From IMG/VR virus record IMGVR_UViG_3300025133_000025: 64,000 nt of DNA; one strand, 5' to 3'. The stretch's first letter is position 1. Each line of letters starts with the position of its first letter. Made by a program: the position numbers and the translations under genes. Shown in pieces: positions 8,415 through 54,909 of this stretch. This DNA comes from a virus. Lineage: Duplodnaviria > Heunggongvirae > Uroviricota > Caudoviricetes. Under the pieces are notes generated by a model that was not told the origin of the DNA, did no database searches, and saw only the letters and a program-made list of their open reading frames with translations.

Positions 8415-8567
8415 TTATGTGTCCTTCTTCCAGTGTGGGCTCCCAGGTGTGTATAGTCCTGGCATGGCCATCACAGCCTGGTCATCTTTGTATTTCAGCA
8501 AAGCTTTAACAAGATGTGAGGCACCTTCAGCTTCTGTTAAGAGACCAGTGATTGTTGGAAACTTCAT
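8415..8567 (-). CDS. Leader-bearing micro-ORF (50 aa)
   Basis: Hand translation MKFPTITGLLTEAEGASHLVKALLKYKDDQAVMAMPGLYTPGSPHWKKDT*; exactly fills the polA-to-6444..8411 gap. Confidence 0.65.
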   Translation of the reverse strand: MKFPTITGLLTEAEGASHLVKALLKYKDDQAVMAMPGLYTPGSPHWKKDT

Positions 8568-8570
8568 GCC

Positions 8571-9806
8571 TTAACTAGTTGCTTCCATAAGATTTTTACC
8601 GCTTGTAATACTCACATGGAACTTACCCAAATCTGGTAAAATATTCCGCATGATTTGGGCAATGTCACCCCGCTCTGTATTTGGCGCTTGATCAACAATA
8701 ATCGCGTCGTGAAGAAACATAACAACCTTCCGCTCAGTATCCTGTATTAGATTTTCATATACAGCGCGATATGCTAGACTACAAATATCAGCTGTGTTTG
8801 ATGCTATGTAATTCTGATAAGCATTTCGTTGCTTGTCAACGTGGACTGGTCGCCCAAACCAGTTGAAAACTACACCCTCATTGTCAACAAACTCGTTTTC
8901 GAGCTCTCGTCGACGTGTTGCAATACCTGGAAATGCGGCGCTAAACATGGTAATGTACTCTTCGACCCTGGATTGTGGCACCCCAAACTTCTTACTTGCA
9001 GTCGACATTGCCATTCCATACAACCTGCCAAGCGCAAGCACTTTGATATTGTCGCGGCGCATCGGCAGTCCTGTCATTTCTTTAATTTGTGTGTACAGGT
9101 CTTCTACCATCGCAACCTTTGAATAGCCTGCATCAAAAAGTGCGATGCGAAAATCAATTGCTTTGAAATCGTAGTGAACTAATTCACCCTCATCAAATCT
9201 ACTAACAAACTTGCTACGTTCAGGCTTTCTAATATTCAGGATGTTTGTTCCTCTAACTACAGACAGGCGCCCAAGGCGTGTTGATGCAGGTGACATTTCA
9301 ATCTTTTCAGCTCCTGTGGTTGTTGAAACTGGCTGCTTTGCCATCTCAATTAATACACTGTCAAGCGGAATGATCATCTCATTATAGAAAGCTAAATGCT
9401 CATCAAAGAAAGAAAGAAGAATTGCCTTATCAAGAATGTCTCTTGTCAAAGCAGTACGAGCTTGCAGGTAACTTTCTACAGTGTGCTGCGGAAATAGCTC
9501 ATCAACCTTGTAATTCTGGATTGGTATGCCAGCATGAACGTGGGCACGTATTCCAGACTCGAAAAGTTGGACCAGCATGCTGTTTCTGCTTGTCAACTTG
9601 ACACTACCAATATCCACACCAACACCTAAAAGCTTAATGAGATAGTGAATATTCACACTTTTTTGAGTGCCTAGCGTCTCGCGATTGTGTGTAACGAATA
9701 TGCTGTCAGACGCATGCATCACTTCGCGTAGATCTATTGTGCTAAGAAAACCATAACCCTCACAGAAAGCAGAGCTTCCGAGAACCGTATAAACACAATA
9801 TTCCAT
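8571..9806 (-). CDS. DNA polymerase family A (PolA) polymerase domain without exonuclease domains
   Basis: STRLGRLS, motif A DFKAIDFRI, motif B RDNIKVLALGRLYG, N...ASNTADI, motif C FLHDAIIVD. Confidence 0.8.
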   Translation of the reverse strand: MEYCVYTVLGSSAFCEGYGFLSTIDLREVMHASDSIFVTHNRETLGTQKSVNIHYLIKLLGVGVDIGSVKLTSRNSMLVQLFESGIRAHVHAGIPIQNYKVDELFPQHTVESYLQARTALTRDILDKAILLSFFDEHLAFYNEMIIPLDSVLIEMAKQPVSTTTGAEKIEMSPASTRLGRLSVVRGTNILNIRKPERSKFVSRFDEGELVHYDFKAIDFRIALFDAGYSKVAMVEDLYTQIKEMTGLPMRRDNIKVLALGRLYGMAMSTASKKFGVPQSRVEEYITMFSAAFPGIATRRRELENEFVDNEGVVFNWFGRPVHVDKQRNAYQNYIASNTADICSLAYRAVYENLIQDTERKVVMFLHDAIIVDQAPNTERGDIAQIMRNILPDLGKFHVSITSGKNLMEATS

Positions 9807-9871
9807 GTAAGTTCATTATATCTCTTGGCCGGATTTTATGAATTTACTTAGTTTTAAACAAGCTAAAGTGA

Positions 9872-12007: not shown

Positions 12008-12008
12008 A

Positions 12009-12257
12009 CTACACCTCTACTGGAATTATAAGTGTTCCATTTTCCCAGGCATCAAAGAAATATCCGATCCCATTTAAGTCAGCAATTACCCACCATAGTC
12101 GAGCGTCTCCAAGATACTCGGCAGCAAGATCTGTTAGGCGAGTCTCTTCTGTTACTTCAACTGTAAATGTAGTTGTGGCACGCACGCCATGATCAATTAC
12201 ATCTTGTGTTTCAATGAATGTGCCCTGCACAGTTCCAAGATCATCGTATCGTCCCAT
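12009..12257 (-). CDS. LysM-like baseplate/tail protein (gpX/gp53-like)
   Basis: RLTDLAAEYLGDARLWWVIADLNGI...LIIP. Confidence 0.8.
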   Translation of the reverse strand: MGRYDDLGTVQGTFIETQDVIDHGVRATTTFTVEVTEETRLTDLAAEYLGDARLWWVIADLNGIGYFFDAWENGTLIIPVEV

Positions 12258-13909: not shown

Positions 13910-13911
13910 GC

Positions 13912-18184: not shown

Positions 18185-19096
18185 TTACCACTCTTTACGG
18201 AGGTGGCGCTGGAGATCACTCGGCAACTTGGTGGCAAATTTCTTAAGAATCCTAACAAATTGCTCAGGATCATCAAGCGGTTCATCTTTGACATCCATGA
18301 ATGAGGGTTGGGGCCCTGGATATCCAACATACTCAAGATAATCTTCATAATCAGGCCAGCGATCCTCATCATATTCAACTTGGCCTTTAAATTTGAGCCA
18401 ATTTGTCACATCAAAGTGTATCTGAACATCCTTCCTCGAATCCTGCTTATGCTTAAAGATGATAAGTGGGTCGTTTTTCTTGTGGTATTGATTATAATAC
18501 TTCTTCAGGCCCGGCGCTGCCGTGCACCACCTCGTACCCTTGCCAAGATAGCAGGCTGCTGCGTGTGTCTCAGGAATGAAGATCTTCCATTCGTCATCTT
18601 CACCAATAAGATTCATCCCAGCACTTGCATCACCTGCGATTGGGCGAGCAGCCATGTGCTCATGATATTCTTCTTCAGCATCATTGACAATTCTAATAAG
18701 CTCTCCAATACTGGGAATATCGTAAATGTTGTTTTTCTCTAGGATTACATCAACGCCTTGCGCTTTCATTTGATAGAAGATTTCAAGGTGCCCCAGAGCA
18801 TGAGGAAGACTCCTTTCCCAATTTCTGGCAGCTTTTACATCCTTGGTTGCGTGAACAAAACTACCAATTAACCAGTTCAGCGCTTCACCTCTATACTTGT
18901 CTTCAATATCGTGTGGGACTGCATCCTCAATCTCTTGTAGAAAATCCTGATAGAGGTTTTCATACGAACTATGTTCACCCGGCATTTGCTTCAAGCGCAT
19001 CACAGCATTCTTGAACTTTTTACTTTTAAACCGCTGCTCAACCTGACTATACGAAATCTCGTTGAGGAGCTGGAACATGGTTGGAAATGCTGTCAT
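18185..19096 (-). CDS. Leader-bearing protein with WCT-motif domain (paralog of 39000..39944)
   Basis: Start at ATG 19096 after AAAGG: MTAFPTMFQLLNE; core WKIFIPETHAAACYLGKGTRWCTAAPG. Confidence 0.7.
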   Translation of the reverse strand: MTAFPTMFQLLNEISYSQVEQRFKSKKFKNAVMRLKQMPGEHSSYENLYQDFLQEIEDAVPHDIEDKYRGEALNWLIGSFVHATKDVKAARNWERSLPHALGHLEIFYQMKAQGVDVILEKNNIYDIPSIGELIRIVNDAEEEYHEHMAARPIAGDASAGMNLIGEDDEWKIFIPETHAAACYLGKGTRWCTAAPGLKKYYNQYHKKNDPLIIFKHKQDSRKDVQIHFDVTNWLKFKGQVEYDEDRWPDYEDYLEYVGYPGPQPSFMDVKDEPLDDPEQFVRILKKFATKLPSDLQRHLRKEW

Positions 19097-19842: not shown

Positions 19843-20592
19843 TTAGCCCTGTTGTAGGTAGTTCTTTTCAAGAGTTGCCCACTGTAGGAAAGAGGCCATG
19901 CCAGAAGGGCCGCGGCCGTGGCGGCTTGAAGTGTCTTCGCCACCGTAGTGACCGCCCTTTTCCTTGTAGCCTTCCTTCTTGAACTCCTTGGCCCAACCGA
20001 GCAGCTTCTTCATTGTTCCTGGGCCGCCGGTGAACCATGCTGTTGAATCAATCAGCCCTGTTGTGAATGAACCTTCAACTTCACCGGTCTTTGCGTTCAT
20101 CGCGATGAATACGCTGTGCCAGCCTGGATCCCAGTGATACAGAAGAGTGTAAGTATCACCTGAATACTCGTCCTGCCCCTCAGAGCCTGCCCATAGAATT
20201 GAATCCCTGGGCCAGCCCTTTTCCGTGAGACCCTTGATATATCTCACGCCTTCTTGGCCTACCATGGCATTCCAATCAGGGCCATCGCCGCGTTGGTAGT
20301 TACGCATACCCCCAGTATCATCAGCCCACTTATCATCCAGCTCTGCTGTATAGTCAGCAAGTTCGTCGGGTGGAAGGTCTTTTCCAAGAATCCACGAGAA
20401 TTCTGCACCACCTTCAATATCGTCGCCAATCAAATCAGCAATCTGATCCATCCAGTGCACTTCTGCAGTTTCCAGTGGCTCAACGTCAGGCTCACTTTCA
20501 CTCTCAAGCAGTAGGCTCATCATGCTTGGCAGAGCACGCTCATCAAGTCTTGCAGTAGACTTTCCTGTCAAAAGGTTTTTCATCGTTTGCAT
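19843..20592 (-). CDS. Leader-bearing hypothetical protein
   Basis: ATG at 20592: MQTMKNLLTG...ALPSMMSLLLESE; inserted between sheath and tube genes. Confidence 0.65.
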   Translation of the reverse strand: MQTMKNLLTGKSTARLDERALPSMMSLLLESESEPDVEPLETAEVHWMDQIADLIGDDIEGGAEFSWILGKDLPPDELADYTAELDDKWADDTGGMRNYQRGDGPDWNAMVGQEGVRYIKGLTEKGWPRDSILWAGSEGQDEYSGDTYTLLYHWDPGWHSVFIAMNAKTGEVEGSFTTGLIDSTAWFTGGPGTMKKLLGWAKEFKKEGYKEKGGHYGGEDTSSRHGRGPSGMASFLQWATLEKNYLQQG

Positions 20593-20594
20593 CT

Positions 20595-20744
20595 TTACCA
20601 CTCCACACTCTTGCTACTTGTTGCCAACAGCTCTCGCATGTAGGCATCAATCGATTCATGGTCCTCGCCTGGCTGATCCTTGACGAAAGCAACGGAATCT
20701 CCCGACCCCGCTGCCTCAGTCAGCAATTGTACCATACTCTTCAT
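20595..20744 (-). CDS. Leader-bearing micro-ORF (49 aa)
   Basis: Hand translation MKSMVQLLTEAAGSGDSVAFVKDQPGEDHESIDAYMRELLATSSKSVEW*; SD AAGGGA upstream; fills the gap exactly. Confidence 0.6.
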   Translation of the reverse strand: MKSMVQLLTEAAGSGDSVAFVKDQPGEDHESIDAYMRELLATSSKSVEW

Positions 20745-39948: not shown

Positions 39949-41724
39949 CTATTTGCCCGAAATGTTTAAGCTTTCATCAATACCAAATGCATCATCATCA
40001 TCCAGTTCAAGCTCTTCAATTTGTTGTTCTGGACGGCTTCTGGACAGCTCTGGCATGCCTTTAGCAATACTTTCAAGGAGTGTCGAATGCTTCTTGATTT
40101 GGCGTTCGCCGAGTGATGCTTGTACAAGGCCACCAATATCAACATTAAACATATCGCGATCAACTTCTGGGAATGCAACAGAGTGATTACTTTGGCGGCG
40201 AGGACCAGAGGACTTCCGCTTATCATGCCCAGATAATTCTTCAAGCTCAGAATCGTCGTAGATGTGACCATCAGTTAAGCTGACTGCTTCCTCTTCCTTC
40301 TTAGGCTTCTCTTCAGGCTTTACTTCCTCAGGATTCTCTTTCTCATCCTGAGGAGCTTCCATACTTTCAAGCTCAAGCTCAAACATCCTATCATCCTTTA
40401 AACGATTTTGAATTCCTTCCTGCACATTGCGGGGGATGAAGAAGATATTATCATACTGCCACTGCTTGTCAAAGAGTCCTTCACCGGCCTGGCCAGCAAC
40501 TTCCATCTTTGTCCTGAGGAGTTCAAGTTGCTGCATCTCGTAAATCTTTGACGGGGACGTCATGTCAATTTCAAAATTGAAGAGGGCGTCGCCTGTGTAC
40601 CCAAGGATGAAAAGGTGAATGATTGCAATTCGTGTTAATTCACTAATAATGCTTCGTTGGATTCTGCCAATTGTTCTGCCGAAGCGAATATCTTCCTGGG
40701 CAAGTGTTGACTTTGCACCTAGATCTTCTTCATAGCCAAGGTAACTCTTTGGAATCTTGAGTGCCGCAAACAACTTGCTTTGAATGTATTGCACATCTTC
40801 AATATCACCTGTGAACTGGCCTCCAGGGAGTGTTTCAATTCGTGATGATTTATCGCCGCGGACAGGAACAAAGTAATCCTCATCTACGGAAAGTGGGTTG
40901 TAGCGCAGATCAACGCGCCCAGTTGAACTGTCGACAACCTGTGAACGCTTAAGGGCTGACTTTGCGCGCTCCATAAATGCCGGAACCTTCTCAGGCTCAA
41001 CATTTCCTACGTCAATATAGAAGACACGGCGCTCAGGTGAGCGGATGATACGATAGACAAGCATGGCATCTTCAATGAGAAGAAGCTGGCGCCAGATGCG
41101 GCGGGCAGGTTCAATTACTGACGTACCATAGGGAAGGAACACATCATTACCAAGAACGCGGAAGTGCGCAACCTGCCACGGCTGCAGCACACGGTTTCCC
41201 ATCGTTACCCAACGGAAACGATATGCAAATGGATCCTTGGGATCGTAGCCTTCTTCACGCTCAATTTCATTAATTGGAATTGGAACAGCTTGCAAGAGAC
41301 CGTTGTGCTCGTTCACATCAAGGTACAGCATCTGATCGCCGTACTTGCACATATTACGAGTCCAACCCCAAAGCTGGAAGTCGAGGTTCAGAATGTCACC
41401 GAAAAGCTGTTCGAGGATCAGGCGAATATCTTCATCTTGAGACTTAATCTGGATGATTCTGCCGTGAGGATCTGGAACGCATGTTTCATCAGCGTAGATG
41501 TCAAGACCTGAAGCAAGCTCCGGCGTCATCTCCATCTCGGCATAGTCGTTGTAGCGCGCCATTCGTTCAATTTGGCCTACGTTCGAAACTGTACTGTACG
41601 TGTTGTATGATAGAGAGCTAAAGCCGGAAGAATCAGACGGTTGGTACGGAAGGCGCTGGATCCTGTGGCGAACCACTGGTCCAGACTTAAAGAGCCTGGT
41701 CAATTGTTTGAAAACGTCAGCCAC
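39949..41724 (-). CDS. Portal protein (T4 gp20-like)
   Basis: LDIYADE, RNMCKYGD, LIEDAMLVYRIIRSPERRVFYIDVGN, EDYFVPVRG, IETLPGG, AALKIPKSYL. Confidence 0.97.
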   Translation of the reverse strand: MADVFKQLTRLFKSGPVVRHRIQRLPYQPSDSSGFSSLSYNTYSTVSNVGQIERMARYNDYAEMEMTPELASGLDIYADETCVPDPHGRIIQIKSQDEDIRLILEQLFGDILNLDFQLWGWTRNMCKYGDQMLYLDVNEHNGLLQAVPIPINEIEREEGYDPKDPFAYRFRWVTMGNRVLQPWQVAHFRVLGNDVFLPYGTSVIEPARRIWRQLLLIEDAMLVYRIIRSPERRVFYIDVGNVEPEKVPAFMERAKSALKRSQVVDSSTGRVDLRYNPLSVDEDYFVPVRGDKSSRIETLPGGQFTGDIEDVQYIQSKLFAALKIPKSYLGYEEDLGAKSTLAQEDIRFGRTIGRIQRSIISELTRIAIIHLFILGYTGDALFNFEIDMTSPSKIYEMQQLELLRTKMEVAGQAGEGLFDKQWQYDNIFFIPRNVQEGIQNRLKDDRMFELELESMEAPQDEKENPEEVKPEEKPKKEEEAVSLTDGHIYDDSELEELSGHDKRKSSGPRRQSNHSVAFPEVDRDMFNVDIGGLVQASLGERQIKKHSTLLESIAKGMPELSRSRPEQQIEELELDDDDAFGIDESLNISGK

Positions 41725-41805: not shown

Positions 41806-42234
41806 TCAATCAAAATCAAGTTCATCTTCAACTTCGCGCCCAATATCACTTGCACTTTTTGCAAAGTTAAAATCTCTTCGCAGAATATCAATAGCAGCCT
41901 TCATGTCATACTGTGATTTTGCAAATGTTGCATACATCTTTAAAAAATAAAAGACCTCTTCTATTTCTTCACCATCACGTACTGCTTCAATTAAGTTCTC
42001 TATTCCATCAATGAGATCAACATCATTATCACGATATTTTGAATCTGGAAAATCAAGTGTAAACATGCCGTGCGTTAATCTTTTTACAAGCATAAGGAGC
42101 TGCTCAAGCTCTTGAATAACAATGCTAGGATCTCTTCTTATTTTTTCTGCTACTTTATTAATCGCACTTTCAACGTGGCGGGCGCTAAACTCGTCAACTA
42201 CTTCTGTCAGTTTTTGTATTGTTGGAAACTTCAC
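41806..42234 (-). CDS. Leader-bearing hypothetical protein
   Basis: GTG start overlapping the upstream stop; MKFPTIQKLTE; helical and acidic. Confidence 0.65.
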   Translation of the reverse strand: MKFPTIQKLTEVVDEFSARHVESAINKVAEKIRRDPSIVIQELEQLLMLVKRLTHGMFTLDFPDSKYRDNDVDLIDGIENLIEAVRDGEEIEEVFYFLKMYATFAKSQYDMKAAIDILRRDFNFAKSASDIGREVEDELDFD

Positions 42235-43363
42235 TTTATATCCCCTGAATCAGATGGGCGCTTTACACCTAACCTACTTCTGATATAGTACACATTTGCA
42301 AAACGCACGCCCATTTGCTCTGCAACTTCTTTGTCTGTCAATGTTTCGTCAAGCATGCGTGGATCATTTACAAGCTTACTTGTTTTTCCGAGGGGCTTCT
42401 TGATTGGTGGTCTCTTAACTTTTAACATATCACGCTTATAAAAGACTGTTGCAAGCGGAAGACCAATCTCTATTGACACTTCTTCGTCAGATAGATCTTC
42501 ATCTGTTAGAAAATCATCATCGTCATCAAAGATATCGATAATTTCGCTTGGCTCTTTTGGCTGTCTTGCACGGGGGCCGGCATGGCCAAATTCAATTCCC
42601 AGCTTTCTGCGGCGTGCCCTTACGCGGCTAAGTGTAATTGTGTCAAGCTCGCCTGGAAATCTAGTGCGTAATTTTGCAATTACCTCAGCATGCCCTACAA
42701 GTTTATCTTTAAGAATTGAATCATTAAACCACTTAGGAGTATATGGCTTAAAACCTGCTGCTTTTCGTAAATTCTTGATTGTTGCAGGTGCTACGTCATA
42801 CTTGGCTGCAAGCTCAACTGCACTTACCCTTCCATTCATAAAGTGAGGATCTGCCTTAAGCTTCTTATGGAATGCAACAATCTCTTTTCTGCTCATTCGC
42901 CTAGGCTCAATACCTAATTCTTTACGATAGATACTAACTCTTGATGCATCAATGCCATACCTTTGTCCGAGTTCTTTATTAGTAATATCACGATTTCTAA
43001 TATCTGGATCATTCTTAAGAATTGGTCCCATTGAACTCTTAAAGCCTTTAACACCTAACCTCTGTCGAATTCTTAAAACTGTAGCAGAATTAATACCATA
43101 GCGAGCTGCAATTGTCTTATGCATGACATTCTTGTCATAGATATCCGGATCTTTTCTAAGCTTGGCTATTACACCTGGGCCACCTCTTTTAAGGGGAGCA
43201 AGACCTGCAGCACGGCGATACTTCGAAACACTAGATAAATCCATGTTGTATCTATTTGCCAGCTCTTTGTGTGAAACGTCTGGATTTAAAAAGTCAGGAT
43301 CAGCTTGGACCTTTTCTTTCTTTGAAGCCTCAAGCAGCAATTTTTGTATTGTTGGAAACTTCA
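42211..43363. repeat. 23-bp exact direct repeat encoding the leader (42211-42233 and 43341-43363); 16 bp of it recur at 8551-8566
   Basis: TTTTTGTATTGTTGGAAACTTCA at both sites, 1130 bp apart; ATTGTTGGAAACTTCA also at 8551. Confidence 0.9.
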
Positions 43364-43364
43364 T
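42231..43364 (-). CDS. Leader-bearing tandem helix-turn-helix repeat protein
   Basis: MKFPTIQKLLLE followed by about 6-7 repeats of DP....vshkeLA.rY.....tV...R...G. Confidence 0.75.
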   Translation of the reverse strand: MKFPTIQKLLLEASKKEKVQADPDFLNPDVSHKELANRYNMDLSSVSKYRRAAGLAPLKRGGPGVIAKLRKDPDIYDKNVMHKTIAARYGINSATVLRIRQRLGVKGFKSSMGPILKNDPDIRNRDITNKELGQRYGIDASRVSIYRKELGIEPRRMSRKEIVAFHKKLKADPHFMNGRVSAVELAAKYDVAPATIKNLRKAAGFKPYTPKWFNDSILKDKLVGHAEVIAKLRTRFPGELDTITLSRVRARRRKLGIEFGHAGPRARQPKEPSEIIDIFDDDDDFLTDEDLSDEEVSIEIGLPLATVFYKRDMLKVKRPPIKKPLGKTSKLVNDPRMLDETLTDKEVAEQMGVRFANVYYIRSRLGVKRPSDSGDIK

Positions 43365-43676: not shown

Positions 43677-43744
43677 GTCTGGTGTACACCAACGTAGATC
43701 TTTCCATTGACAGTGTTGGTAGTCTGGTAGACGAGGTAGTGCAT
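43677..43744 (-). pseudogene. N-terminal fragment of a GIY-YIG (Seg-like) homing endonuclease
   Basis: MHYLVYQTTNTVNGKIYVGVHQT, TGATG-coupled to the upstream gene, then abruptly joined to the terminase duplicate. Confidence 0.8.
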
Positions 43745-44778
43745 CAAGCGTTTTCCCAAGCAAACTCTTCTGTGTGGTTCTGTTCGCAAGCCTGCATAAA
43801 TGCGTCAAGTGTTGGGGTACTGCTCATGTTCGTAAGAAACTGCTCCTCTGTTAACCACCACGCTGGAATTGAACTATCAGCAGTACCCCAGCCAACATCT
43901 TCGCCAGCTGCGATTGCGTTCTTTGCAGCAGCTACATCCTGCTCTGGAAGCTTGTAGCTCATGTGATCGATAACAATGAACCACGTCAATTCTTCAGCAT
44001 TTTCTTGCATCAATTCTTCAACATCACGAAAAAATGCGTCTGTGATCAGAGTGATAACTTCACCCTCATCAAGCTGCACACCAAACGCAGCATATAGTGC
44101 TTGGAACAAACCCGTGAACGCTTTCTGGCTTTTGGCCCAGGAAGCTGCATCTGGTGCTGGAAAGTCGTCAAACTTTCCAGAGACCACTAGCTGCTGCAAT
44201 TTTTTTATAAAGGCCGCAGTCGGCGGGAGGATGTCGGCTTTTCTATTGGCTAAGCCCGGGCGCTTCCTTGAATAAACAGTTTCTTCATCGTCAGAATAAC
44301 CAAGGTGCTTCGCAGGCGCTTCTTTGCCCAGCATCTGCAGATTCGCATCTTCAATCGTACTGGCCAGCAACTCCATAAATTGCTGATCCTGCTCTTTAAT
44401 ACTGCTGATCACGTACACGTACGCTTGCTCTGGAATTTGTTTATAGTATGAATGGAAAACTTGGGGAGTTCCCGGCGTTTCAGTCACAGTCACAATTGAA
44501 GTCCACATCTTTTTATAATCACTTGTCCAGCCCGGAAAGTAATCAATAAACAGCTTGCTGTACTTAAAAGCGTGTAAATCATGATCTTCTACGTTAGCAT
44601 ACACTGCCCGCTTTTGCACACCCACTCGGCTGCGCATAGGCCCAGTGTTAACATGCTCACCAGAAACGGGGGGGTGCTGTGTTACTCCGCTGGCGCGATA
44701 ACGTGAAACAAACTGCCGCAGTGTGAAATCAACCTGTGTGGCTTCTAGTAGCATTCTCATCGTTGGTAAATATTTCAT
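43744..44778 (-). CDS. Leader-bearing hypothetical protein
   Basis: MKYLPTMRMLLE; SD GGAGG; lies between the two terminase-end copies. Confidence 0.7.
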   Translation of the reverse strand: MKYLPTMRMLLEATQVDFTLRQFVSRYRASGVTQHPPVSGEHVNTGPMRSRVGVQKRAVYANVEDHDLHAFKYSKLFIDYFPGWTSDYKKMWTSIVTVTETPGTPQVFHSYYKQIPEQAYVYVISSIKEQDQQFMELLASTIEDANLQMLGKEAPAKHLGYSDDEETVYSRKRPGLANRKADILPPTAAFIKKLQQLVVSGKFDDFPAPDAASWAKSQKAFTGLFQALYAAFGVQLDEGEVITLITDAFFRDVEELMQENAEELTWFIVIDHMSYKLPEQDVAAAKNAIAAGEDVGWGTADSSIPAWWLTEEQFLTNMSSTPTLDAFMQACEQNHTEEFAWENA

Positions 44779-44805: not shown

Positions 44806-46500
44806 TCAGCCAGTCGAGATAAGCCATGAAAAGTCGATATCGAATTTTTCCCCATATACACTCTTGCGCTTCAACTGCGCTTGTGATGGCTTCTGTGGGG
44901 CAAACTCATCTGACTTATAGCCTGTCATGTCAGTAACAGTATTAGTTTCGAGTGTCATTCCGGCCAGCATTCCTTCGACTTCTCTTGAATCATTAATTAA
45001 TACAATTCTATCACGCAGCCACAAGGTTTGGGAATAAGCTACGATTAAATCATCATGGTAGCCCCGCATGTGCTGGGGTTTGTTGTTGAGCCAAATGAAC
45101 GTCTTCAGTTCTTCAAGCAGTCTTGGCGGGAGCTTAGGAACAATTTCATTTTCTTCATCATCCCCCGATTCAATCCACTCTTGCATGCGTGCAACAATAA
45201 GAGGACGCACCGTTGAAGACATTGTGAAGCCTGGAACAAGGTCTTTTCGGTGTGTCCCATACTTCACAAGAACATGCTCGGCAGGCTTGCCTTTGACTGT
45301 ATAAATAAGGGCAGGATAACGCAGTTCTTCAAGCTTCTCAACAGTTGTCCAGCCAATCCCTGTGTTCTCAACAGAGATTGCACAGCCACCATACTCATGC
45401 CCAATATCATATAGGAGGTGCCCAAATGTTGTTGGCTTCAATCTACCCTTGAAATCAGCAACAACCTGTCCCATCTCAGCATCAAGAATGGAAAATGATG
45501 AATAATCTTCTCCGTCACCTCTGGCGACATCAGAGCCAATTACATACTTATGCCCTGGCTTATATGTTTCGTAAACCCAAATCCTGCCGTCACGGCCTTC
45601 TGTATGCCACTTATCAATTGCGTGTGCTTGTAGGACTTCAAGTCTTTGACCAGAAATAACTGTATCACCTGAAAATAGGAAGTTGCACTCATATTCCTGT
45701 GCAATCTTCTTCTTGGAGAAGTTGCGGGTCTCCGTCTTGAACCATTCTTCATCACGATCAGGATGTTCATGCCACATAAGTGGCCGAAGCGCAACGAAAT
45801 CATTTCTGCCCGCCACACAATCTTCGTACATCTTGTGGAACATGCCACCGACGCCGAAGGGAGTGCTGAACACAATGGCTCGACCACCTGTTGAAATTGT
45901 TGGGTATGCTGACGTCCAGATTGTGTCGAGATTTGGAATCTTTGCCGCCTCATCGATAACAAGAAGTGACGTCGATTCAGAGGTGCCCGCATTGTCTGTG
46001 GGTGCCATGGCCTTAACAGTTGAACCGTTTGGCAACTCGATTGTGTGAACGTTATCTGCTACGAGCTTGACATCACCCCGACGCTTCTTATCGTCATAAG
46101 AGATGCCAAAGGCGCGCTTGAATTCATATGGCAGTGCCTTCAGCGCGTACTTGATCTTACGAATAAGACCCTTAGCAGCTGCGGCATCCTTAGAGATAAT
46201 AATGACAACTTGGTCACGCTTGAACAGCATGAGCCATGTGACGTACATTGCAAGCAGCGTTGAAAAGCCAAGCTGGCGTGCCTTCAGGATGATAGCAAAG
46301 CGGTTCTCATCGAACAGCTGTGTGGCTTCTTCCTGGAATTTGAACATGTCAAAGCGGATCTTACCTCGCACTGGATGCGAGATGTACCCGTACTTCTTCA
46401 TGAAATAGATGGCTCCTGCGCTGTCATACGCATCACCCTCAGCCGGTTGTCTTGTGCACCGACGAAGCTCCTCTGTCAGGACCTTCTTAGTGAATGCCAT
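44806..46500 (-). CDS. terL: Terminase large subunit (T4 gp17-like)
   Basis: ILKARQLGFST (Walker A), LLVIDEAA (Walker B), STPFG, QEYECNF, GSDVARGDGEDYSSF, RGYHDDLIVA. Confidence 0.97.
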   Translation of the reverse strand: MAFTKKVLTEELRRCTRQPAEGDAYDSAGAIYFMKKYGYISHPVRGKIRFDMFKFQEEATQLFDENRFAIILKARQLGFSTLLAMYVTWLMLFKRDQVVIIISKDAAAAKGLIRKIKYALKALPYEFKRAFGISYDDKKRRGDVKLVADNVHTIELPNGSTVKAMAPTDNAGTSESTSLLVIDEAAKIPNLDTIWTSAYPTISTGGRAIVFSTPFGVGGMFHKMYEDCVAGRNDFVALRPLMWHEHPDRDEEWFKTETRNFSKKKIAQEYECNFLFSGDTVISGQRLEVLQAHAIDKWHTEGRDGRIWVYETYKPGHKYVIGSDVARGDGEDYSSFSILDAEMGQVVADFKGRLKPTTFGHLLYDIGHEYGGCAISVENTGIGWTTVEKLEELRYPALIYTVKGKPAEHVLVKYGTHRKDLVPGFTMSSTVRPLIVARMQEWIESGDDEENEIVPKLPPRLLEELKTFIWLNNKPQHMRGYHDDLIVAYSQTLWLRDRIVLINDSREVEGMLAGMTLETNTVTDMTGYKSDEFAPQKPSQAQLKRKSVYGEKFDIDFSWLISTG

Positions 46501-46647
46501 TCTTAAAAAGCCCCTTTAGAAATTGATCCACTTCACTAGGCATATCTGGCAGCTCATTCGCGTAATGTGCTATATTGTAAACTGTCATATTTTCCCCCAC
46601 CAACATTTAAAATTTCAGGAACTTTGACGCGCAGGCTTTCATTATTA

Positions 46648-47091
46648 TTAGCCTCTACTAGATGTAAAATTGTCGGAAGCATGTTCTTGTCTCTCTAGCT
46701 CAAATCTCTTTAGCAATTGGTCTCTAATGAAAGGTTCCTTACTTAGAATCCACGCGCGTGTAGTTTCACGCTTTTCTTTTACAGCTGGAAGAAGCTCACC
46801 AGCTGGAAGGTTTTGAAGATCTGGATCTCCATCTACCCACAGTGTTACGCATGTTGAGCAAATCCCCCACTTATTAATGTCGGATTTGGTCGTCTTTCTC
46901 TGCGCAGTCGGGATGCGCTTGCAGCAGTCACAAGTGTTGCTAATCTTTACAGAGTCACCAGCAGCAGCTCGTGCAGCAGCAAGATTCTTACTAATCCAAT
47001 AGCCTTTTTCGACGTTTGGCTGGCCTGGGACGTGACCTGTCTTTATCCAAACCATCCCTGTGCGTTCAGCACGTTCTTCGCGCTCATACAT
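46648..47091 (-). CDS. Hypothetical Zn-finger protein
   Basis: CDCC...CSTC pairs; conserved position upstream of terminase. Confidence 0.6.
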   Translation of the reverse strand: MYEREERAERTGMVWIKTGHVPGQPNVEKGYWISKNLAAARAAAGDSVKISNTCDCCKRIPTAQRKTTKSDINKWGICSTCVTLWVDGDPDLQNLPAGELLPAVKEKRETTRAWILSKEPFIRDQLLKRFELERQEHASDNFTSSRG

Positions 47092-48598: not shown

Positions 48599-48599
48599 A

Positions 48600-49004
48600 T
48601 TATTCCTCGCCTTCTGGCTCCTCTTGCTTGCTTGGGCTTTCCCTCTTTTTAAGAGTCTCAATTACACGAAGCACATGCAAATACAATTGTTCTGGTGACG
48701 CCTTTCCTTGATCAACAAGCGAAATAAGCTGCGCAATTACCTCAAGCAACTTTCGCCAGCCAGCGTCTGATAATTGGCCGATATTTTCATGGTATACCTT
48801 AGCAAGGGCGCGCCCAACCATTTCAAAGTCTCTTGTCTTTCCAACCTTGAAAATTGCTGATAGCTTATCAACAGTTCCTTCATACAGGGGCCCTTGCTTA
48901 GACGTTTTTTCATCTATACGCTTGAATTCATAGATGAGGCGCGCCTCACGCATTGCTGGGCGAATCATTGCATCGAGTTGTTCAGTCGTTAATTGTCGTG
49001 GCAT
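48600..49004 (-). CDS. Hypothetical protein
   Basis: Start MPRQLTTEQL at 49004 after GGAG. Confidence 0.55.
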   Translation of the reverse strand: MPRQLTTEQLDAMIRPAMREARLIYEFKRIDEKTSKQGPLYEGTVDKLSAIFKVGKTRDFEMVGRALAKVYHENIGQLSDAGWRKLLEVIAQLISLVDQGKASPEQLYLHVLRVIETLKKRESPSKQEEPEGEE

Positions 49005-52000
49005 CTGGTTCTCCAATGTATTCAATACTTGATGCACCATTATCGTCAATGATGATCTCTAAAGTAGTATCAACCATATCTTTTAAAAGGTCAATATGTG
49101 AAACTATGATAACTACGTCAAAAACCTTCTTTAGATAGGTAAACATGTTCTGAATGGAATCAATCTTTTCTGGATCAAGTGAGCCGAAACCCTCATCAAT
49201 CACAAACATATTGGTCTTGGGGAGATTTGTTACGTTAATCATGGCCACCCGCATGGCGATTGACGAAATAAACTTCTCTGCCCCGCCAGCTAACTCAATT
49301 GGTCGCCTGCCCTTTTTCTCATCATGGATGTAGATATCAACTTTCTTATCGTCAGTGTCGGGTTCCAGTGTTATCGTGAAGTTAACAATTGATGACAGAA
49401 TCGCGTTGATTTCGTTGTTGAGAAGCGGAAGACGCTGCTTCATGACGAAGTAGCTCACGCCGTTCTTTGACATTGCGTCAATGTAATACTCTAGAGCTGT
49501 GTAATCTGCCTTTAGTTTCTCAATCTCTGCCTTCTGGTCCTTTTTTCTAGCCCTATCAATAGCAACAGCATCAATGCGTGAAGACACCTGGCGTTGGGCG
49601 CTAACAATTGCATTATTGATATATGCTTGTGCTCCATGAAGTTCATCTTGAAGTTCATCAAGTTGCTTATCAAGTTGCTTATTTTCCTCAATTGCTTCGC
49701 GTGCGTTTAAGATTGCAGCAACCTTGATATTCTTCAAGCGAATTGCAGCACGTACACCCTTCTTTTTTGCCATAGCAGTGTCAATAAGCAGTTTCAAGTG
49801 TTCAAAGCGCGCCTGCTTATCAAGTTCAAGCTCTGCCTTACCAATTGACGCTGTTAGTGACTCTGCATCATCAAATGCTGCAATCGCAGAATTGATAGAA
49901 ACCAACTCTTGTTTGGCGCTAAATGCATCAGCAATGAAGCGACAATCAGGAAACTTGTCACCACATGGAACACTCTCAAGAAGTGCAGCTCGCTGCGTGA
50001 GGTGTCCAGCTTCACGAATTGTATCACGTTGATTTATAAGCTGTTTTCTACTTTCTTCAATGGTTTTTCGCAGCTTATCAGAATCTTTGCCGGCAACGTA
50101 ACGTAAGCTATTTCTCTCTTCACGCAGCTCTACTAAATGATCGTCAAACGCACCCAGAGAATCTTCCAATTCAGCAATTTCGCCGTTCAGAGAGTCTTCA
50201 CTTACACCAATTAGCGTAGGATCAATAGGCGTGATCTGCCTATTAAGCTCAGCAATTTGCTCTTGATGTCCAGCAATTGCAGCTTCATAGCTCTCTTTCT
50301 CAGAATCAAGGCCACGGAGCTGCTTTCGAAGGTCTCGTGTTTGCGTCGTGCATGCATGCATGAGCTCGTCGTACTCTTCAGGAGTCTTATAGCTACGCAT
50401 GTCACGCTTGATTTCACTCATGTCATCTTTGGCCTTCACATACTTCTGCTTGAAGCGGTCGAGGTCCATAAAGCGACTGATTACCTGCTTTCGCTCTGTT
50501 GCACCCTTCTCAATGAATGACAGCATTCCAAATTGTGAAGAGAGCATTGTGAGTAGAAGATCATCAATCATTCCAAACTGTGTGCGAATAGCCTTTTCTG
50601 TGTCATTTCGCTGCAAACCAGTCATATCAAGACCATCTACAGAGTATTCAAGACTAGTCTTTCCCCACTCATTTGGGCGGCCGGGATTGAGGCGCTCTGT
50701 CCAGCGCTTAACAACATGGTCAACACCGTTTACATCAAGCGTAAGTTCACCAACACACTCATTTTGCCCTGTTCGTATGATGTCTATATTCTTAACAGAA
50801 GCTTTTGAGATACTGTTGGTGAGTGTATAGAGAATAGATTCAAGGAAGTTTGACTTGCCTGAACCGTTTGCCGCAAATAGCCCAACAAGGCCTCGCAGGC
50901 GCCCAAAGTCAATCTCATTCTCAGGCCCGTAGTTGAGTGTATCAGAAAACTTAAAGTTCTTGATTCGCCACTTCACGCCGCGGGCCGTCACAGTTCCGTC
51001 ATCCTTCAATGCACCATCGTATTTTGCATTAAAAGCAAGGATTTGAGCCAGTAGAGCTGGTTCGAGTGTACCATATCGCTCCTCAAGGTATGTCTTGATT
51101 AGAGCATCCTGGTTGTCAATCTCGTAAAACTTTTCGTGAAGCTCTTCACTCGCAGATACTTCAGTCGGTCTGCGCTTGACAGTGAAAACAAGCTCTCGTA
51201 GGTGCTTTTCATTGAGCTCATCACGGATACCCTGTTTCACATCACTCATGATGGAGGCGCCGTCGACAAGCCTGAGTCGTGCTCCTGTGGGAACATCGTC
51301 AGGATCAAAATCAGCGAGCTCTACTGTCATATATGGGTTCGGCGCTTCCAATTCTCGGAACTGGATGTCAAATTTATCAGCAGAATCGATGTCCCAAATG
51401 AGATAACCCTTGTCAGCAGTTTCACCGTAGTTCTGCTGGATAAGACTGCCCGCATATCGAATGCGGCCGTCCCTATCAAGTACCTGACGCTTGTGAATAT
51501 CACCCAACATTGCGTAGCTATAGCCGTCGAAAATGTTTACTTGGTCGGTGTTACCACGCATCACCCAACCGATGTCTGTTGTTGAATTTGTTATGCCACC
51601 GTGATAGAGGGCGATCATCACGGGCGCCTGCTCAAGACCATTCTTTTCAGGCTCAAGTGGCCAATTATCTTCATCAAAGCATGAATATGCGCCATAAGCA
51701 AAGTCGTCGCTAATCCTATAGATGCCTGACTTCTTATAGTAATTGATGTTATGGGCCGGTTGCATGGCATTGACAACATCAATCACAGGTGTCAGCGCAT
51801 CTTGACGTGTGCTATTCCGGAGATTGCCGTCATGGTTGCCAGGTAGTAAATCAATCGGCGCTATCATTGCTAACTGATGGAAGAAGTCGACAGTTAGTGA
51901 AAAGTACTCAGGTGATAACTGCGTCTTTGTGTGAGCAACATCACCTGTGCATACAATTCTATCAATATTTTCACTACGAAGTGACTCGTACAGCTTATCA

Positions 52001-52071
52001 AAAACAATACGGTACTCATCATGTCGCTTCACATTACGAATGTGAATGTCAGAAACGTGGGCAAATCTCAT
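48982..52071 (-). CDS. SbcD-SbcC (Mre11-Rad50, T4 gp47-gp46) fusion nuclease/ATPase
   Basis: SDIHIR, GDVAH, GNHD, LGDIHKRQ, YAGSLIQQ; ANGSGKS Walker A; coiled coil with CGDKFPDC hook; LAGGAEK signature; FVIDEGFGSLD. ATG at 52071 overlaps the primase stop. Confidence 0.92.
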   Translation of the reverse strand: MRFAHVSDIHIRNVKRHDEYRIVFDKLYESLRSENIDRIVCTGDVAHTKTQLSPEYFSLTVDFFHQLAMIAPIDLLPGNHDGNLRNSTRQDALTPVIDVVNAMQPAHNINYYKKSGIYRISDDFAYGAYSCFDEDNWPLEPEKNGLEQAPVMIALYHGGITNSTTDIGWVMRGNTDQVNIFDGYSYAMLGDIHKRQVLDRDGRIRYAGSLIQQNYGETADKGYLIWDIDSADKFDIQFRELEAPNPYMTVELADFDPDDVPTGARLRLVDGASIMSDVKQGIRDELNEKHLRELVFTVKRRPTEVSASEELHEKFYEIDNQDALIKTYLEERYGTLEPALLAQILAFNAKYDGALKDDGTVTARGVKWRIKNFKFSDTLNYGPENEIDFGRLRGLVGLFAANGSGKSNFLESILYTLTNSISKASVKNIDIIRTGQNECVGELTLDVNGVDHVVKRWTERLNPGRPNEWGKTSLEYSVDGLDMTGLQRNDTEKAIRTQFGMIDDLLLTMLSSQFGMLSFIEKGATERKQVISRFMDLDRFKQKYVKAKDDMSEIKRDMRSYKTPEEYDELMHACTTQTRDLRKQLRGLDSEKESYEAAIAGHQEQIAELNRQITPIDPTLIGVSEDSLNGEIAELEDSLGAFDDHLVELREERNSLRYVAGKDSDKLRKTIEESRKQLINQRDTIREAGHLTQRAALLESVPCGDKFPDCRFIADAFSAKQELVSINSAIAAFDDAESLTASIGKAELELDKQARFEHLKLLIDTAMAKKKGVRAAIRLKNIKVAAILNAREAIEENKQLDKQLDELQDELHGAQAYINNAIVSAQRQVSSRIDAVAIDRARKKDQKAEIEKLKADYTALEYYIDAMSKNGVSYFVMKQRLPLLNNEINAILSSIVNFTITLEPDTDDKKVDIYIHDEKKGRRPIELAGGAEKFISSIAMRVAMINVTNLPKTNMFVIDEGFGSLDPEKIDSIQNMFTYLKKVFDVVIIVSHIDLLKDMVDTTLEIIIDDNGASSIEYIGEPDATTIND

Positions 52072-53042
52072 AGGGTAAGCATCATTTCTTTCATAGACGA
52101 CCATTCATCATGAACTGTAAAATTGAGGTCGCTAATTTGCTCTTTTGTCATTTCACCAAGGTCGTTGACACTCTTCGGTATATGAGCCCGTGATACTGTA
52201 AAGCCGTCGCGAATCAGCATGTCAGCAATGCGTAGTTCTTTTGTTGCGGCATCATTATCAAGTGCTAATCTGACATTTTTGATGCTGCTTGTCTTCAATT
52301 TTCGGTATAGCGCAGTATATGCTCTAGTATTCATATGGCTATACGTTTTCCTAAACGTCGAGCCAAAGAGGGGAACAACATTACCGCCAATCATCAGTGC
52401 GTCAAAGATACCCTCTACAAATGTAATATTGTCAGCACCCCAATCGATGCCACCCTCGTTGAAAACAATGCCATATTTCTCTGTCTCCGCCAGTGTATAG
52501 CGACCAGTCAACATGCTCTTCATTATGAAGAAGTTGAGGCGGCCCTTGCTGTTGTACGACGGAAATACAATTGCGCCTCTTGATGGACCAAGATTGCAAT
52601 ACCCAATTCGACGTTGCAGGATTTGAGGAGTTGTGACACCTCGCTGTGCAAGGTACTCGAGGGCTCTGGCATTTGGTCGAACTGTGAGAGGCTTGTAACT
52701 ATAGGGTAGTTCGACAGTGACGTGCTCAGCTGCTTTAGCTGCATCACGAAGTAGTTTTTCAAAGTCATTAAGGTCAACGATGCCTACAAGTTTATTATAT
52801 TGTGCTCTGTGTGATGATGTTCCGTAGTCATAAAGAAGCCGTGTAATCTTTCCACTATACGCACAAACCCAGCAGTGAAAGTTATCTTTCTCGATGTTAA
52901 CAGAGAGCTTCTTTTTGCCTTTGCGAGCCGAATCACAATCCGAGCGGGGGCAGGCAAACGAGATTTCGTCCAGTCGATATTCGTAGCAGGTGCCAAAAAT
53001 ATCCTCGAGGAGTTCTAGCTTCGCGATGCGAACATTATGCAT
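52068..53042 (-). CDS. DNA primase (Zn finger + TOPRIM)
   Basis: CPRSDC...FHCWVC; FVEGIFDAL; LALDNDA. Confidence 0.88.
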   Translation of the reverse strand: MHNVRIAKLELLEDIFGTCYEYRLDEISFACPRSDCDSARKGKKKLSVNIEKDNFHCWVCAYSGKITRLLYDYGTSSHRAQYNKLVGIVDLNDFEKLLRDAAKAAEHVTVELPYSYKPLTVRPNARALEYLAQRGVTTPQILQRRIGYCNLGPSRGAIVFPSYNSKGRLNFFIMKSMLTGRYTLAETEKYGIVFNEGGIDWGADNITFVEGIFDALMIGGNVVPLFGSTFRKTYSHMNTRAYTALYRKLKTSSIKNVRLALDNDAATKELRIADMLIRDGFTVSRAHIPKSVNDLGEMTKEQISDLNFTVHDEWSSMKEMMLTL

Positions 53043-53591
53043 TCAGCAGAGTGCTAGGGCAAACTTTGCAATGACATATGCATCAGTCATATCGTAAGTC
53101 CCACCTTTTACATTGCCGGACCGGGTGTATTCCCACTCCATAGGATAATTGTACATCTCAATATCCTTCATTGTAAACAGGCGGCCAGCTTCTTTGATAT
53201 GAATCCCTGCTTTTTTATCTTTCACAATGCCAAATTGGCGACGAGCTTCATTCTCTTTGATTGTTAGCAATTCAATGCCATAACTTTCCCAGAGCGCTTG
53301 TGAAAGCATTCCGTGGAACATCCAAAGAAGTGTGATTGTATTGATACTGCCGAAGCCTGTGCGCTTCAGAGGGACCGCTGTGTAGAACTTGACGGGTTCT
53401 GTATCGCCGGGGCGCGCATCTCGAATGAGATCGTCGATCTTCTCTGTGATAGCGCTGATCTTGCCGAACAGCGTCTTGTGCTTCCCTAGCTTGATGAATC
53501 CCATGCCGACGAGTTCATCGCCTTCAGTGAATCTGCGAAAGACAGTGTAGCCAGTACAGGATGTACTGACGTCGAGTCCGATGAGTAGCAT
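53043..53591 (-). CDS. RuvC-like Holliday junction resolvase
   Basis: LIGLDVSTSCTG first-strand motif; DMTDAYVIA terminal motif. Confidence 0.8.
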   Translation of the reverse strand: MLLIGLDVSTSCTGYTVFRRFTEGDELVGMGFIKLGKHKTLFGKISAITEKIDDLIRDARPGDTEPVKFYTAVPLKRTGFGSINTITLLWMFHGMLSQALWESYGIELLTIKENEARRQFGIVKDKKAGIHIKEAGRLFTMKDIEMYNYPMEWEYTRSGNVKGGTYDMTDAYVIAKFALALC

Positions 53592-54377
53592 TTCATTCTC
53601 ACTTTCACTTTAATAAAGGCCGCGTGACTTATAGGGATACACAGTTGGCATGACCCAGTAATCGTAGTCAATGAAAACCAGCTCCTTTGTCCGTGGGCGC
53701 TTCATTACATTCCCGGGACTCACGTCAGCCCAGAACAGACTAGACGCCTCAAGGAAATCTACCATGGTCTGCAACGTGCCTGCTTTGGCACGCAGCTTTT
53801 CAATCTTATCTAGACGATCTTGGTGCGGTAGAGGGTCATTCCAATTCGACGGCCCAGTGTAGCTAAGAACTTCTGTATCATCGTCAAGCAACCCAAAAAG
53901 AAAAGCAACCTCTTTCTGCTCGGCAGAATTTAACGGCTCAAGAAATTCAGCTACAACACACGGTGTCATGTGATCGCCAAAGCCAATTGGCAAAAAGAAG
54001 ACTCGATAGAACTGGATGAGGTGCTTGCTCAAATTGCTTGGCAGCGCTCCCTTAAGCCTTTTATACTCAGCAATCTCTCTCTTGATCGTGTCAAGCTCAA
54101 GCCGATACGCATAGTGAGTTTTGATTGCAACCTGCCGGCCCTGCTGGTCAGTCGCTGACCAAACAGTTCCGTGAAATCCGTCACCTACTTCTACAGCACC
54201 AACATATCCCTCCTGCGCCAGTGCCTCTACAACATCTGCCTTGGACACGTTGTCTGTATAATCAGACTCAAGTAAATACGACATTGTGGGGAACATTAGA
54301 TGTCGTGCCTCAGCTTGAAAAGCACTGAAGCCAGTACAGGAAGTACTGACGTCGAGTCCGATGAGTAGCATTGCATT
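53549..54377. repeat. 49-bp direct repeat of the ruvC 5' end (53549-53597 and 54329-54377) flanking the kinase gene
   Basis: AGCCAGTACAGGA(T/A)GTACTGACGTCGAGTCCGATGAGTAGCATT(T/G)CATT; 2 mismatches; 780 bp apart. Confidence 0.92.
53610..54296 (-). CDS. Leader-bearing protein kinase-like protein
   Basis: Probable ATG 54296 (MFPTMSYLLE). VGDGFHGTVW Gly-loop, VAIK, helix-C E, VVAEFL hinge, WADVSPGNVM catalytic loop, FIDYD. The frame also extends upstream into the ruvC duplicate. Confidence 0.75.
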   Translation of the reverse strand: MFPTMSYLLESDYTDNVSKADVVEALAQEGYVGAVEVGDGFHGTVWSATDQQGRQVAIKTHYAYRLELDTIKREIAEYKRLKGALPSNLSKHLIQFYRVFFLPIGFGDHMTPCVVAEFLEPLNSAEQKEVAFLFGLLDDDTEVLSYTGPSNWNDPLPHQDRLDKIEKLRAKAGTLQTMVDFLEASSLFWADVSPGNVMKRPRTKELVFIDYDYWVMPTVYPYKSRGLY

Positions 54378-54483
54378 AATCTCTTTCACCTTTGACAGTT
54401 ATAACTTCAGCAGGGATTGGCTGTGTAGGCTTTTGCTGGCTTGATTGCGCTTCGCTTAACAGTTGGCTGACAGTTGGAAACAT
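54376..54483 (-). CDS. Leader-bearing micro-ORF (35 aa)
   Basis: Hand translation MFPTVSQLLSEAQSSQQKPTQPIPAEVITVKGERD*; SD GAGGG upstream. Confidence 0.6.
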   Translation of the reverse strand: MFPTVSQLLSEAQSSQQKPTQPIPAEVITVKGERD

Positions 54484-54498
54484 CAGGCCGCCCTCTTT

Positions 54499-54909
54499 CT
54501 AATTACCCATGAAATCATCATCATCATGTTGTGGCCAGAAGCCAGGAAGCTCAGCACCTCGGCCCCAATCAGGATCTTGCAGCGTTGCTGCAACCTTCTT
54601 GGCCCAGCGCAGCTTTGGAATTTTGTCATAAATGCCAGTAGTCCCAGAGTGACCAGTCCACTCAGTGTCAACAACAGATTTAACCTTGGGGTCCTTCATG
54701 ATGTCAATCATGAGATTGCCAATCCATTCCTCTTGCCACTCATCTGTTCCATGCGCAGCTTTGATTTCCCAGTGGTCAGGAACATCACGTTCACCAACAT
54801 CGTATCCGCCTGGGCCAGCTGCAGACACACCGTAGCTGCCATAGTCAATCGTCACTGTGCTGTTTGCATCAGCACTTTCTAGTAAAAATTTCATCGTTGG
54901 ATATTTCAT
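54499..54909 (-). CDS. Leader-bearing hypothetical protein
   Basis: MKYPTMKFLLE; SD AGGAG. Confidence 0.7.
   Translation of the reverse strand: MKYPTMKFLLESADANSTVTIDYGSYGVSAAGPGGYDVGERDVPDHWEIKAAHGTDEWQEEWIGNLMIDIMKDPKVKSVVDTEWTGHSGTTGIYDKIPKLRWAKKVAATLQDPDWGRGAELPGFWPQHDDDDFMGN

Follow-up and report, generated by a model that had tools for sequence, protein, structure and literature searches.

A common N-terminal leader on accessory proteins of an uncultured T4-like phage, probably a capsid-targeting propeptide

In the structural module of an uncultured marine phage, a distant T4-like myovirus, accessory genes that mostly share nothing else begin with the same short leader of ~11 residues (consensus M-(K)-[FYL]-P-[TS]-[IMV]-x-x-L-L-(x)-E). 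What does one leader do on so many different proteins? The genes in question lie in a stretch of 64,000 nucleotides (nt) from the virus record IMGVR_UViG_3300025133_000025, hereafter the window, which equals positions 69,518-133,517 of a 175,726-bp ENA metagenome contig. From its sequence, we consider it likely that the leader is a capsid-targeting propeptide of the T4 type carrying a new tag, on a repertoire about five times that of T4. Because mostly unrelated genes have in common a tag that ends in a predicted head-protease cut site, the 17 tagged proteins are, by analogy with T4, probably loaded into the head and injected along with the DNA.

The leader and the genes that carry it

An earlier note on the window had listed twelve N-termini with this leader. 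All twelve are present on the minus strand, which carries all plausible genes of the window, and a thirteenth, on a short open reading frame (ORF) at 46554-46682, had been overlooked. The search was extended to 123 kb of the 175.7-kb contig, assembled via exact-protein look-ups and leaving out record positions 1-50,778 and the last 1.6 kb. Four tandem kinase genes ~33-35 kb past the end of the window (L027:11120-15153, window-equivalent about 95,293-99,326) also bear the leader (MFPTITQLLALE, MIDLLPTMVQLLE, MTFPTMKTLVVE, and MLPTMHNLLTE), which brings the total to 17 leader ORFs. An early-type promoter box upstream of these tandem kinases faces the opposite direction. The leader genes of the window are as follows (lengths in amino acids, aa; a slash marks the predicted cut):

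8415-8567, minus strand: 50-aa ORF, leader MKFPTITGLLTE/A; separated by 3-nt spacers from its two neighbors, a PolA-like gene and a 655-aa gene; missed by the ENA gene caller
18185-19096, minus strand: 303-aa cargo, leader MTAFPTMFQLLNE/I; W-C-T family, paralog of 39000-39944
19843-20601, minus strand: cargo of about 250 aa with a long N-terminus and two leader-like halves, MQTMKNLLTG ... ALPSMMSLLLE/S; likely ATG start at 20592
20595-20744, minus strand: 49-aa ORF, degenerate leader MKSMVQLLTE/A without the F-P-T half; 10 nt behind the tail-sheath gene
28451-29551, minus strand: 366-aa cargo, leader MSQFPSMKQLLTE/A; directly behind the capsid gene
39000-39944, minus strand: 314-aa cargo, leader MFPTISNLLLE/V; 4 nt behind the portal gene; W-C-T family
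41806-42234, minus strand: 142-aa cargo, GTG start, leader (M)KFPTIQKLTE/V
42231-43364, minus strand: 377-aa cargo, leader MKFPTIQKLLLE/A; tandem helix-turn-helix (HTH) DNA-binding protein
43744-44778, minus strand: 344-aa cargo, leader MKYLPTMRMLLE/A; 27 nt behind the large terminase gene
46554-46682, minus strand: 42-aa ORF, leader MLPTILHLVE/A
53610-54296, minus strand: 228-aa kinase-like cargo, leader MFPTMSYLLE/S; related to the four tandem kinases outside the window
54376-54483, minus strand: 35-aa ORF, leader MFPTVSQLLSE/A
54499-54909, minus strand: 136-aa cargo, leader MKYPTMKFLLE/S; no known family

Among the members listed earlier, two are degenerate, namely the 20744 ORF and the 20592/20601 ORF, whose leader is double and partly decayed. 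The four ORFs of 35-50 aa may encode small internal peptides or be what is left of lost cargo genes; 54376-54483 is probably a leader stub, and 8415-8567 is either a small cargo or such a stub. Nine of the 13 window genes begin 3-30 nt behind the preceding gene, several of them directly behind virion genes (portal, tail sheath, terminase), a spacing that fits co-expression with the head genes.

The core pattern P[TS][IMV]xxL[LVT]x?E was found 12 times in the six-frame translation of the window, each time on the coding strand. For ten of these matches an in-frame Met is no more than 4 residues away; of the other two, one is preceded by a GTG start (42234) and one falls at residue 23 of its ORF (20529). 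In 300 residue shuffles of the window the mean number of matches was 0.14 and the maximum 2, and a chance origin of the motif is thereby ruled out; enrichment over shuffled sequence, on which the earlier proposal depended, is confirmed. Over the 123 kb the core motif occurs 15 times, all on the same strand. De novo clustering of N-terminal peptides over the same 123 kb gave the leader cluster, with 13 members, as the sole cluster of more than two. As a positive control, the identical clustering of 99 kb of phage T4 returned the trio IPI, IPII, and IPIII, the alt/alt.-1 duplication, and two chance trios of equal size, and none larger. The control thus recovers the experimentally defined trio of capsid-targeting sequences (CTSs), which indicates that the method finds a true CTS; measured in this way, the cluster is about five times the size of that in T4. 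The statement of the earlier note that no core replication gene carries the leader holds over the 123 kb, where the replication, nucleotide-metabolism, glycan-island, packaging, and structural core genes are all without it.

Once stripped of their leaders, the protein bodies have little in common. In all-against-all BLAST (E ≤ 1e-3) the only similarities are those between 19096 and 39944 and between 54296 and the four tandem kinases. In place of the single paralog pair of the earlier note there are therefore two families, one formed by the W-C-T pair and one by the kinases. The remaining ten bodies are mutually dissimilar by BLAST, giving at least 12 unrelated families in total.

Selection on the leader acts on the peptide and not on the DNA. 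Across the five conserved leader codons, amino-acid identity is 78%, whereas the third base is shared in only 35% among identical residues. All six Leu codons and all four Pro codons occur, and the DNA upstream of the leader genes is unrelated except for the ribosome-binding sites.

Two traces of DNA exchange were seen among these genes. The adjacent, otherwise unrelated leader genes that start at 42234 and 43364 have 23 identical bases (42211-42234 and 43341-43364) encoding MKFPTIQK; they are the sole leader pair identical in DNA, which suggests a recent duplication or exchange. In addition, a ~75-nt direct repeat (54297-54400 and 53520-53600) brackets the kinase-like gene 53610-54296. It is made up of the start of the RuvC-like gene 53043-53591, namely the ribosome-binding region and ~17 initial codons (MLLIGLDVSTSCTG...), and is a footprint left by insertion of a cargo gene through recombination.

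Both traces could be cited for an explanation in which the shared 5' segment acts as nucleic acid, either as a homology handle for cassette shuffling or as an enhancer of translation initiation, with the peptide incidental: the first is shared DNA, and the second shows that these genes move by recombination. The repeat that flanks the kinase gene, however, is the 5' end of the RuvC-like gene and not the leader. The third-base identity, the Leu codon usage, and the differing upstream sequences also argue against such a role, as does the survival of the leader on kinases that have diverged to 41-46% identity. We regard an action at the level of nucleic acid as very improbable.

The head protease and the predicted cut site

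If the leader is a T4-type propeptide, a prohead protease should recognize its end. The window genes that bear on this, together with their neighbors, are the following:

29644-31521, minus strand: Gp23-type major capsid protein, 625 aa
31553-32494, minus strand: acidic, helical gp22-like scaffold candidate with many L/I-x-E sites, proposed by position and composition, not homology
34638-35207, minus strand: conserved head-module protein; its N-terminus, MKVNKKQLKAKLKPLIRE..., is similar to the MKITKxQLKQIIKEE leaders found in related phages
35594-36193, minus strand: gp21-type prohead serine protease (Peptidase_S77), the presumed leader peptidase
39949-41724, minus strand: Gp20-type portal protein, a marker of the head module; several cargo genes lie within this module
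44806-46500, minus strand: large terminase
48982-52104: SbcCD-like fusion protein

The gp21-like protease noted earlier is indeed encoded. The 35594-36193 protein matches the S77 family (PF03420) with E 4e-30 and T4 gp21 (5JBL) with E 5e-20, and its catalytic residues His76 and Ser129 are invariant in five aligned sequences. The closest proteases of other phages are 29-54% identical, and the F-P-T motif is absent from their loci. In the proteases of relatives (L001:9995-10603, L002:10004-10615, and L003:6420-7016) the sequence C-Q-D-L-L-T-E stands close to the protease's own N-terminus and is a candidate autocleavage site, comparable to LIE-9 of T4 gp21; the window protease is without it.

The ends of the leaders match what such a protease would cut. 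The leaders are 10-13 aa long, and 15 of the 17 start within 5 residues of the start codon. The residue before the predicted cut (P1) is Glu in all 17 and P3 is Leu in 15, with ends such as LLTE/A, LLLE/A, and LLE/S. The same L-L-x-E recurs in the capsid protein, whose predicted maturation site reads A-L-L-A-E58/T-N (codons about 31348-31359) and is conserved as L-[LI]-x-E/[TAS]-N in two relatives. The site lies just upstream of the block that aligns to residues 91-135 of T4 gp23, where gp23 itself is cut (FLTE/A). Only residues 75-119 and 350-606 of the capsid protein align to gp23; residues ~120-350 have no counterpart there, so that the protein carries a large inserted domain.

These observations suggest the following course of events. 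The tagged proteins would be made together with the virion genes, late in infection. The conserved N-terminal half of the leader (F-P-T-I/M) would bind a lineage-specific partner in the prohead scaffolding core, so that the tagged proteins are enclosed as the shell forms. The gp21-type protease would then cut after the Glu of L-L-x-E, as it presumably does in the capsid protein, and the cut would release mature cargo inside the head, ready for injection with the DNA. Five putative kinases, two W-C-T proteins, and a tandem-HTH DNA binder would be among this cargo, along with several proteins of no known family.

A tag of this kind might instead serve a system other than the prohead, such as a modifying enzyme with many substrates, export, or incorporation into the tail or baseplate. 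In favor of this, the neck/tail module of the window includes, at 24262-25907, a trypsin-like peptidase with a signal peptide (24262-24993; PF13365, E 2e-9) that overlaps by 4 nt a gene for a 305-aa lipoprotein-like protein. Against such a system, no radical-SAM/SPASM or similar maturase was found among the Pfam matches over the 123 kb, the leader appears from its sequence to be too short and too polar for a Sec or Tat signal, and the end of the tag equals the capsid protein's own predicted maturation site. Moreover, other leader classes (see below) occur on genes beside S77 proteases. Service to a non-prohead system is thus improbable.

Several points weigh against prohead targeting and are set down here together. 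The trypsin-like protein with its signal peptide is a second protease in the window. Two leaders (LLALE and TLVVE) have no Leu at P3. The ORF at 8567 sits among replication genes, and the four leader ORFs of 35-50 aa are perhaps decayed stubs and not cargo. Around the four tandem kinases gene orientation is mixed, and early-gene cassettes adjoin this region. T4-type late promoters (TATAAATA-type sites) are not associated with the leader genes, nor is any 8-mer common to their upstream regions. The N-terminal half F-P-T bears no similarity to the T4 CTS, so that the targeting role is argued by analogy, and the case as a whole is built on the sequence of an uncultured phage.

Beyond the head genes and the cargo, the structural module holds tail-sheath, gp15-like, and baseplate proteins, and the low-coordinate end of the window is occupied by replication genes (PolA-like, gp32, RecA/UvsX). 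The gene just upstream of that for the protease (36205-38160) encodes a 651-aa protein that combines a NUDIX domain with a long acidic tail and that, at its N-terminus (MQISQGSLREMIMQL), is similar to the leader class of the relatives. Megablast of the window against 50,697 phage records gave no nucleotide match. The capsid protein shares 32-51% identity with its counterparts in Microcystis phage Mel-JY01, Rhodothermus phage RM378, Flavobacterium "immuto" phages, and two huge uncultured phages.

Cargo families and the exchange of leaders

The strongest new evidence of the analysis comes from homologues of the cargo, whose N-termini indicate that the leaders are exchangeable modules. The W-C-T protein 39000-39944 has 33 homologues in metagenomic phages, and these carry at least four different leaders (MKLIMENWRKYLNEELLNE/, MIRIIFENKKLLNE/, MKIKLI...LLLE/, and others), all ending in L-x-E immediately before the start of the domain (V/I-x-M-E-Q-V...R-F). 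L9 and E11 are at least 90% conserved in the 33 homologues, and the remaining leader positions are not. In the AlphaFold2 (AF2) model of the W-C-T protein (predicted local distance difference test, pLDDT, 84), residues 1-8 are disordered and the fold begins near residue 13. No match to the W-C-T cargo was found by tblastn in cultured phages, and the fold gave no PDB match at E ≤ 0.001. Homologues of 28451-29551 behave similarly: they start MKTLQQLMSE/, MVNLKQFIFE/, and MKNVLKEYISLLIE/, with the hydrophobic-x-Glu end exactly at the domain boundary.

The kinases add a larger sample. An exhaustive search with one tandem kinase gave 150 representatives, and a hydrophobic-hydrophobic-x-E motif ending at residues 6-24 was present in 68 of 146 kinase homologues, against 13% expected from the internal frequency of the motif. 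For W-C-T homologues the corresponding figures are 29 of 32 and 8%. Kinases and W-C-T proteins draw on the same few leader classes. The F-P-T leader itself is retained by three kinase homologues from other samples with a body identity of 41-46%, so that, as judged from these sequences, the leader outlasts the body. Two of the three (MTFPSMKRLLRE and MYYPTISQLFALE) are neighbors on one contig, which also encodes a Gp23 fragment. Scans of viral and metagenome contig collections, exclusive of the window's own contig, with the back-translated patterns MKFPT[IM]xxLLxE and MFPT[IM]xxLLxE gave 0, 6, and 3 matches, apparently noise as judged by internal positions, stop codons, and single matches.

The leader classes of related phages are organized in the same manner. 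In the relative IMGVR_UViG_3300034980_000576 (G001), whose protease is 49% identical to that of the window, eight genes start with MKITKxQLKQIIKEE and five with an MKLLLENWRKY-like sequence; seven of the eight and three of the five lie within ~22 kb around the head module, and their bodies are mutually unrelated. These two classes are found at 76-99 kb and 1.5-2.4 kb of G001, which uses both at once, and at 6.2-6.5 kb of G002. In the window phage, MKxxKxQLK-type N-termini occur on the conserved head-module genes 34638-35207 and 36205-38160, and all accessory cargo has F-P-T. Altogether, at least four leader classes (F-P-T-x-x-x-L-L-x-E, MKITKxQLKQIIKEE, MKLLxENWRKYLxE, and xLLREYIxLLxE) are found on the same cargo families in different uncultured T4-like phages.

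Homologous cargo bears the local tag of each lineage, which points to a co-evolving prohead receptor that could be found by covariation. A possible though doubtful extension is that the leader classes are lineage-specific "zip codes" that co-evolve with this receptor in the prohead core, and that one phage can run two of them, perhaps to set different copy numbers or to reach different sub-compartments. In that case, the injected proteome, ready-made kinases included, could be read from sequence alone across this large group of phages.

The same homologues bear on whether the leader is an address at all. It could be simply a propeptide that the protease removes, keeping enzymes inactive or unfolded until the head matures, with packaging directed by another part of the protein. 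The L-x-E end is indeed the best-conserved part of the leader across homologues, and dissection of the T4 CTS placed targeting in its N-terminal part and processing at residues 8 and 10 (PMC9026906), so that the two functions map to different residues. In the window phage, however, conservation of the F-P-T-[IM] half equals that of the cut site over at least 12 unrelated bodies that share nothing else, and homologous cargo in other phages adopts the local leader class whole. A disordered tag of 11 residues is also unlikely to act as a general inhibitor of unrelated folds. A propeptide without an address is accordingly unlikely, and targeting to the prohead is preferred.

The labels given to the cargo by the earlier note fared differently. 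The tandem HTH of 42231-43364 was confirmed, and the W-C-T pair was upheld by BLAST. The kinase family has Pkinase matches with E 1e-6 to 3e-5 that nevertheless fall below the gathering score, along with RIO1 and choline kinase matches at E about 0.008, and the 54296 protein matches a tandem kinase (BLAST E 1.6e-8); on these sub-threshold matches, 53610-54296 and the four tandem genes are putatively five protein kinases. The ART-like (ADP-ribosyltransferase-like) fold of 28451-29551 was not confirmed and serves only as a lead. Its Atlas feature score to ART-PolyVal is 0.83, but there is no Pfam match at E ≤ 5, the AF2 model has a pLDDT of 56, the Foldseek matches to ARTs (cholix, PARP) are weak (E 0.2-1.5), and the His of HFSD is not invariant in the family. 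The best Foldseek match of this low-confidence model is chain 9k3a_B of the cyanophage A4 pre-ejectosome (E 5.7e-4, TM 0.26), with unconvincing geometry. The 344-aa cargo 43744-44778 matched no family, and its Atlas model is poor. The remaining cargo are orphan proteins, and a role of the cargo in host takeover or anti-defense is a guess.

Were the tag to work as in T4, it would give a sequence-only read-out of the proteins that an uncultured phage injects with its DNA, and the five putative kinases, the multi-HTH DNA binder, and several orphans would be candidates for host takeover or counter-defense in the first minute of infection. It would also show the reach of the T4 CTS principle beyond the T-even phages. 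The CTS of T4 has already been borrowed as a protein-packaging handle, and the tags described here could serve likewise.

Comparison with known systems

The distinct and greatly expanded capsid-targeting code of the earlier note is supported in silico by the protease, the L-x-E ends, the capsid site, leader swapping, and selection on the peptide; it is not a new kind of code, but the known T4 CTS principle with a new tag. That principle is textbook knowledge, and the processing of many head proteins is known from giant phages (PMC5694885). New here are the F-P-T tag, its presence on five putative kinases, and the swapping of whole leader classes on homologous cargo. In the literature searched there was no paper for these tag strings, and none on CTS-type leaders in marine or uncultured T4-like phages.

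T4 offers the closest parallel. Its CTSs, of 10-19 aa, head otherwise diverse internal proteins (PMC9026906, PMC3012670, PMC5694885), and gp21 removes those of IPI, IPII, and IPIII as well as the short propeptides of Alt, gp24, gp22, and gp67 (Mullaney & Black 1996, as reviewed in PMC9026906 and PMC5694885). The propeptide ends read from the T4 record are MKTYQEFIAE/A (IPII and IPIII), MEGLIE/A (gp67), MLKEQLIAE/A (gp22), MAKINELLRE/S (gp24), and ...FLTE/A (gp23). Likewise, the leader described here is a tag of 10-13 residues at the extreme N-terminus with a hydrophobic-x-Glu end followed by a small residue (mostly Ala or Ser); it is found on otherwise unrelated accessory proteins, and it is accompanied by a gp21-family protease and by a Gp23-type capsid protein with the same site. 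Even the micro-ORFs have a counterpart in the leader-plus-stub ORF alt.-1. At alt.-1/alt.-2 (L039:3066-3451), T4 retains a short ORF, beginning MELITELFD, that duplicates the initial part of the gene for the packaged Alt protein. In contrast, the presumed targeting half is F-P-T-[IM] here and K-T-Y-Q-E-F in T4, there are 17 members here as opposed to 3, the cargo here includes the five putative kinases and the tandem-HTH protein, and the system is known from its genes alone.

T-even internal proteins have only the CTS in common (PMC3012670), and their polymorphic loci (PMC3012670, PMC9026906) resemble the present case in combining one tag with many fast-changing cargo genes and signs of turnover, such as duplications and stubs. 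Unlike those genes, which occupy one or two loci, the cargo genes here are scattered over structural and other modules, and whole leader classes are exchanged on homologous cargo across phages.

In the giant phages phiKZ, 201phi2-1, and SPN3US, the propeptides of head and ejection proteins, mostly of 80-160 residues, are cut by a gp21-like protease at S/A/G-x-E (PMC5694885, PMC7411985). There too many head-internal proteins are processed by a T4-like prohead protease, and gp53 and gp54 of SPN3US are diverged paralogs with N-terminal identity. These long propeptides are protein specific and have a different cleavage motif, whereas one short tag is common to all cargo here.

Finally, the putative kinases recall those of the T7 gp0.7 type, phage-encoded and trimmed kinase-like enzymes that presumably act on the host as infection begins. 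Gp0.7, however, is made from an early gene after DNA entry, whereas the kinases here bear a head-protease-type leader, which suggests that they are delivered as ready-made proteins.

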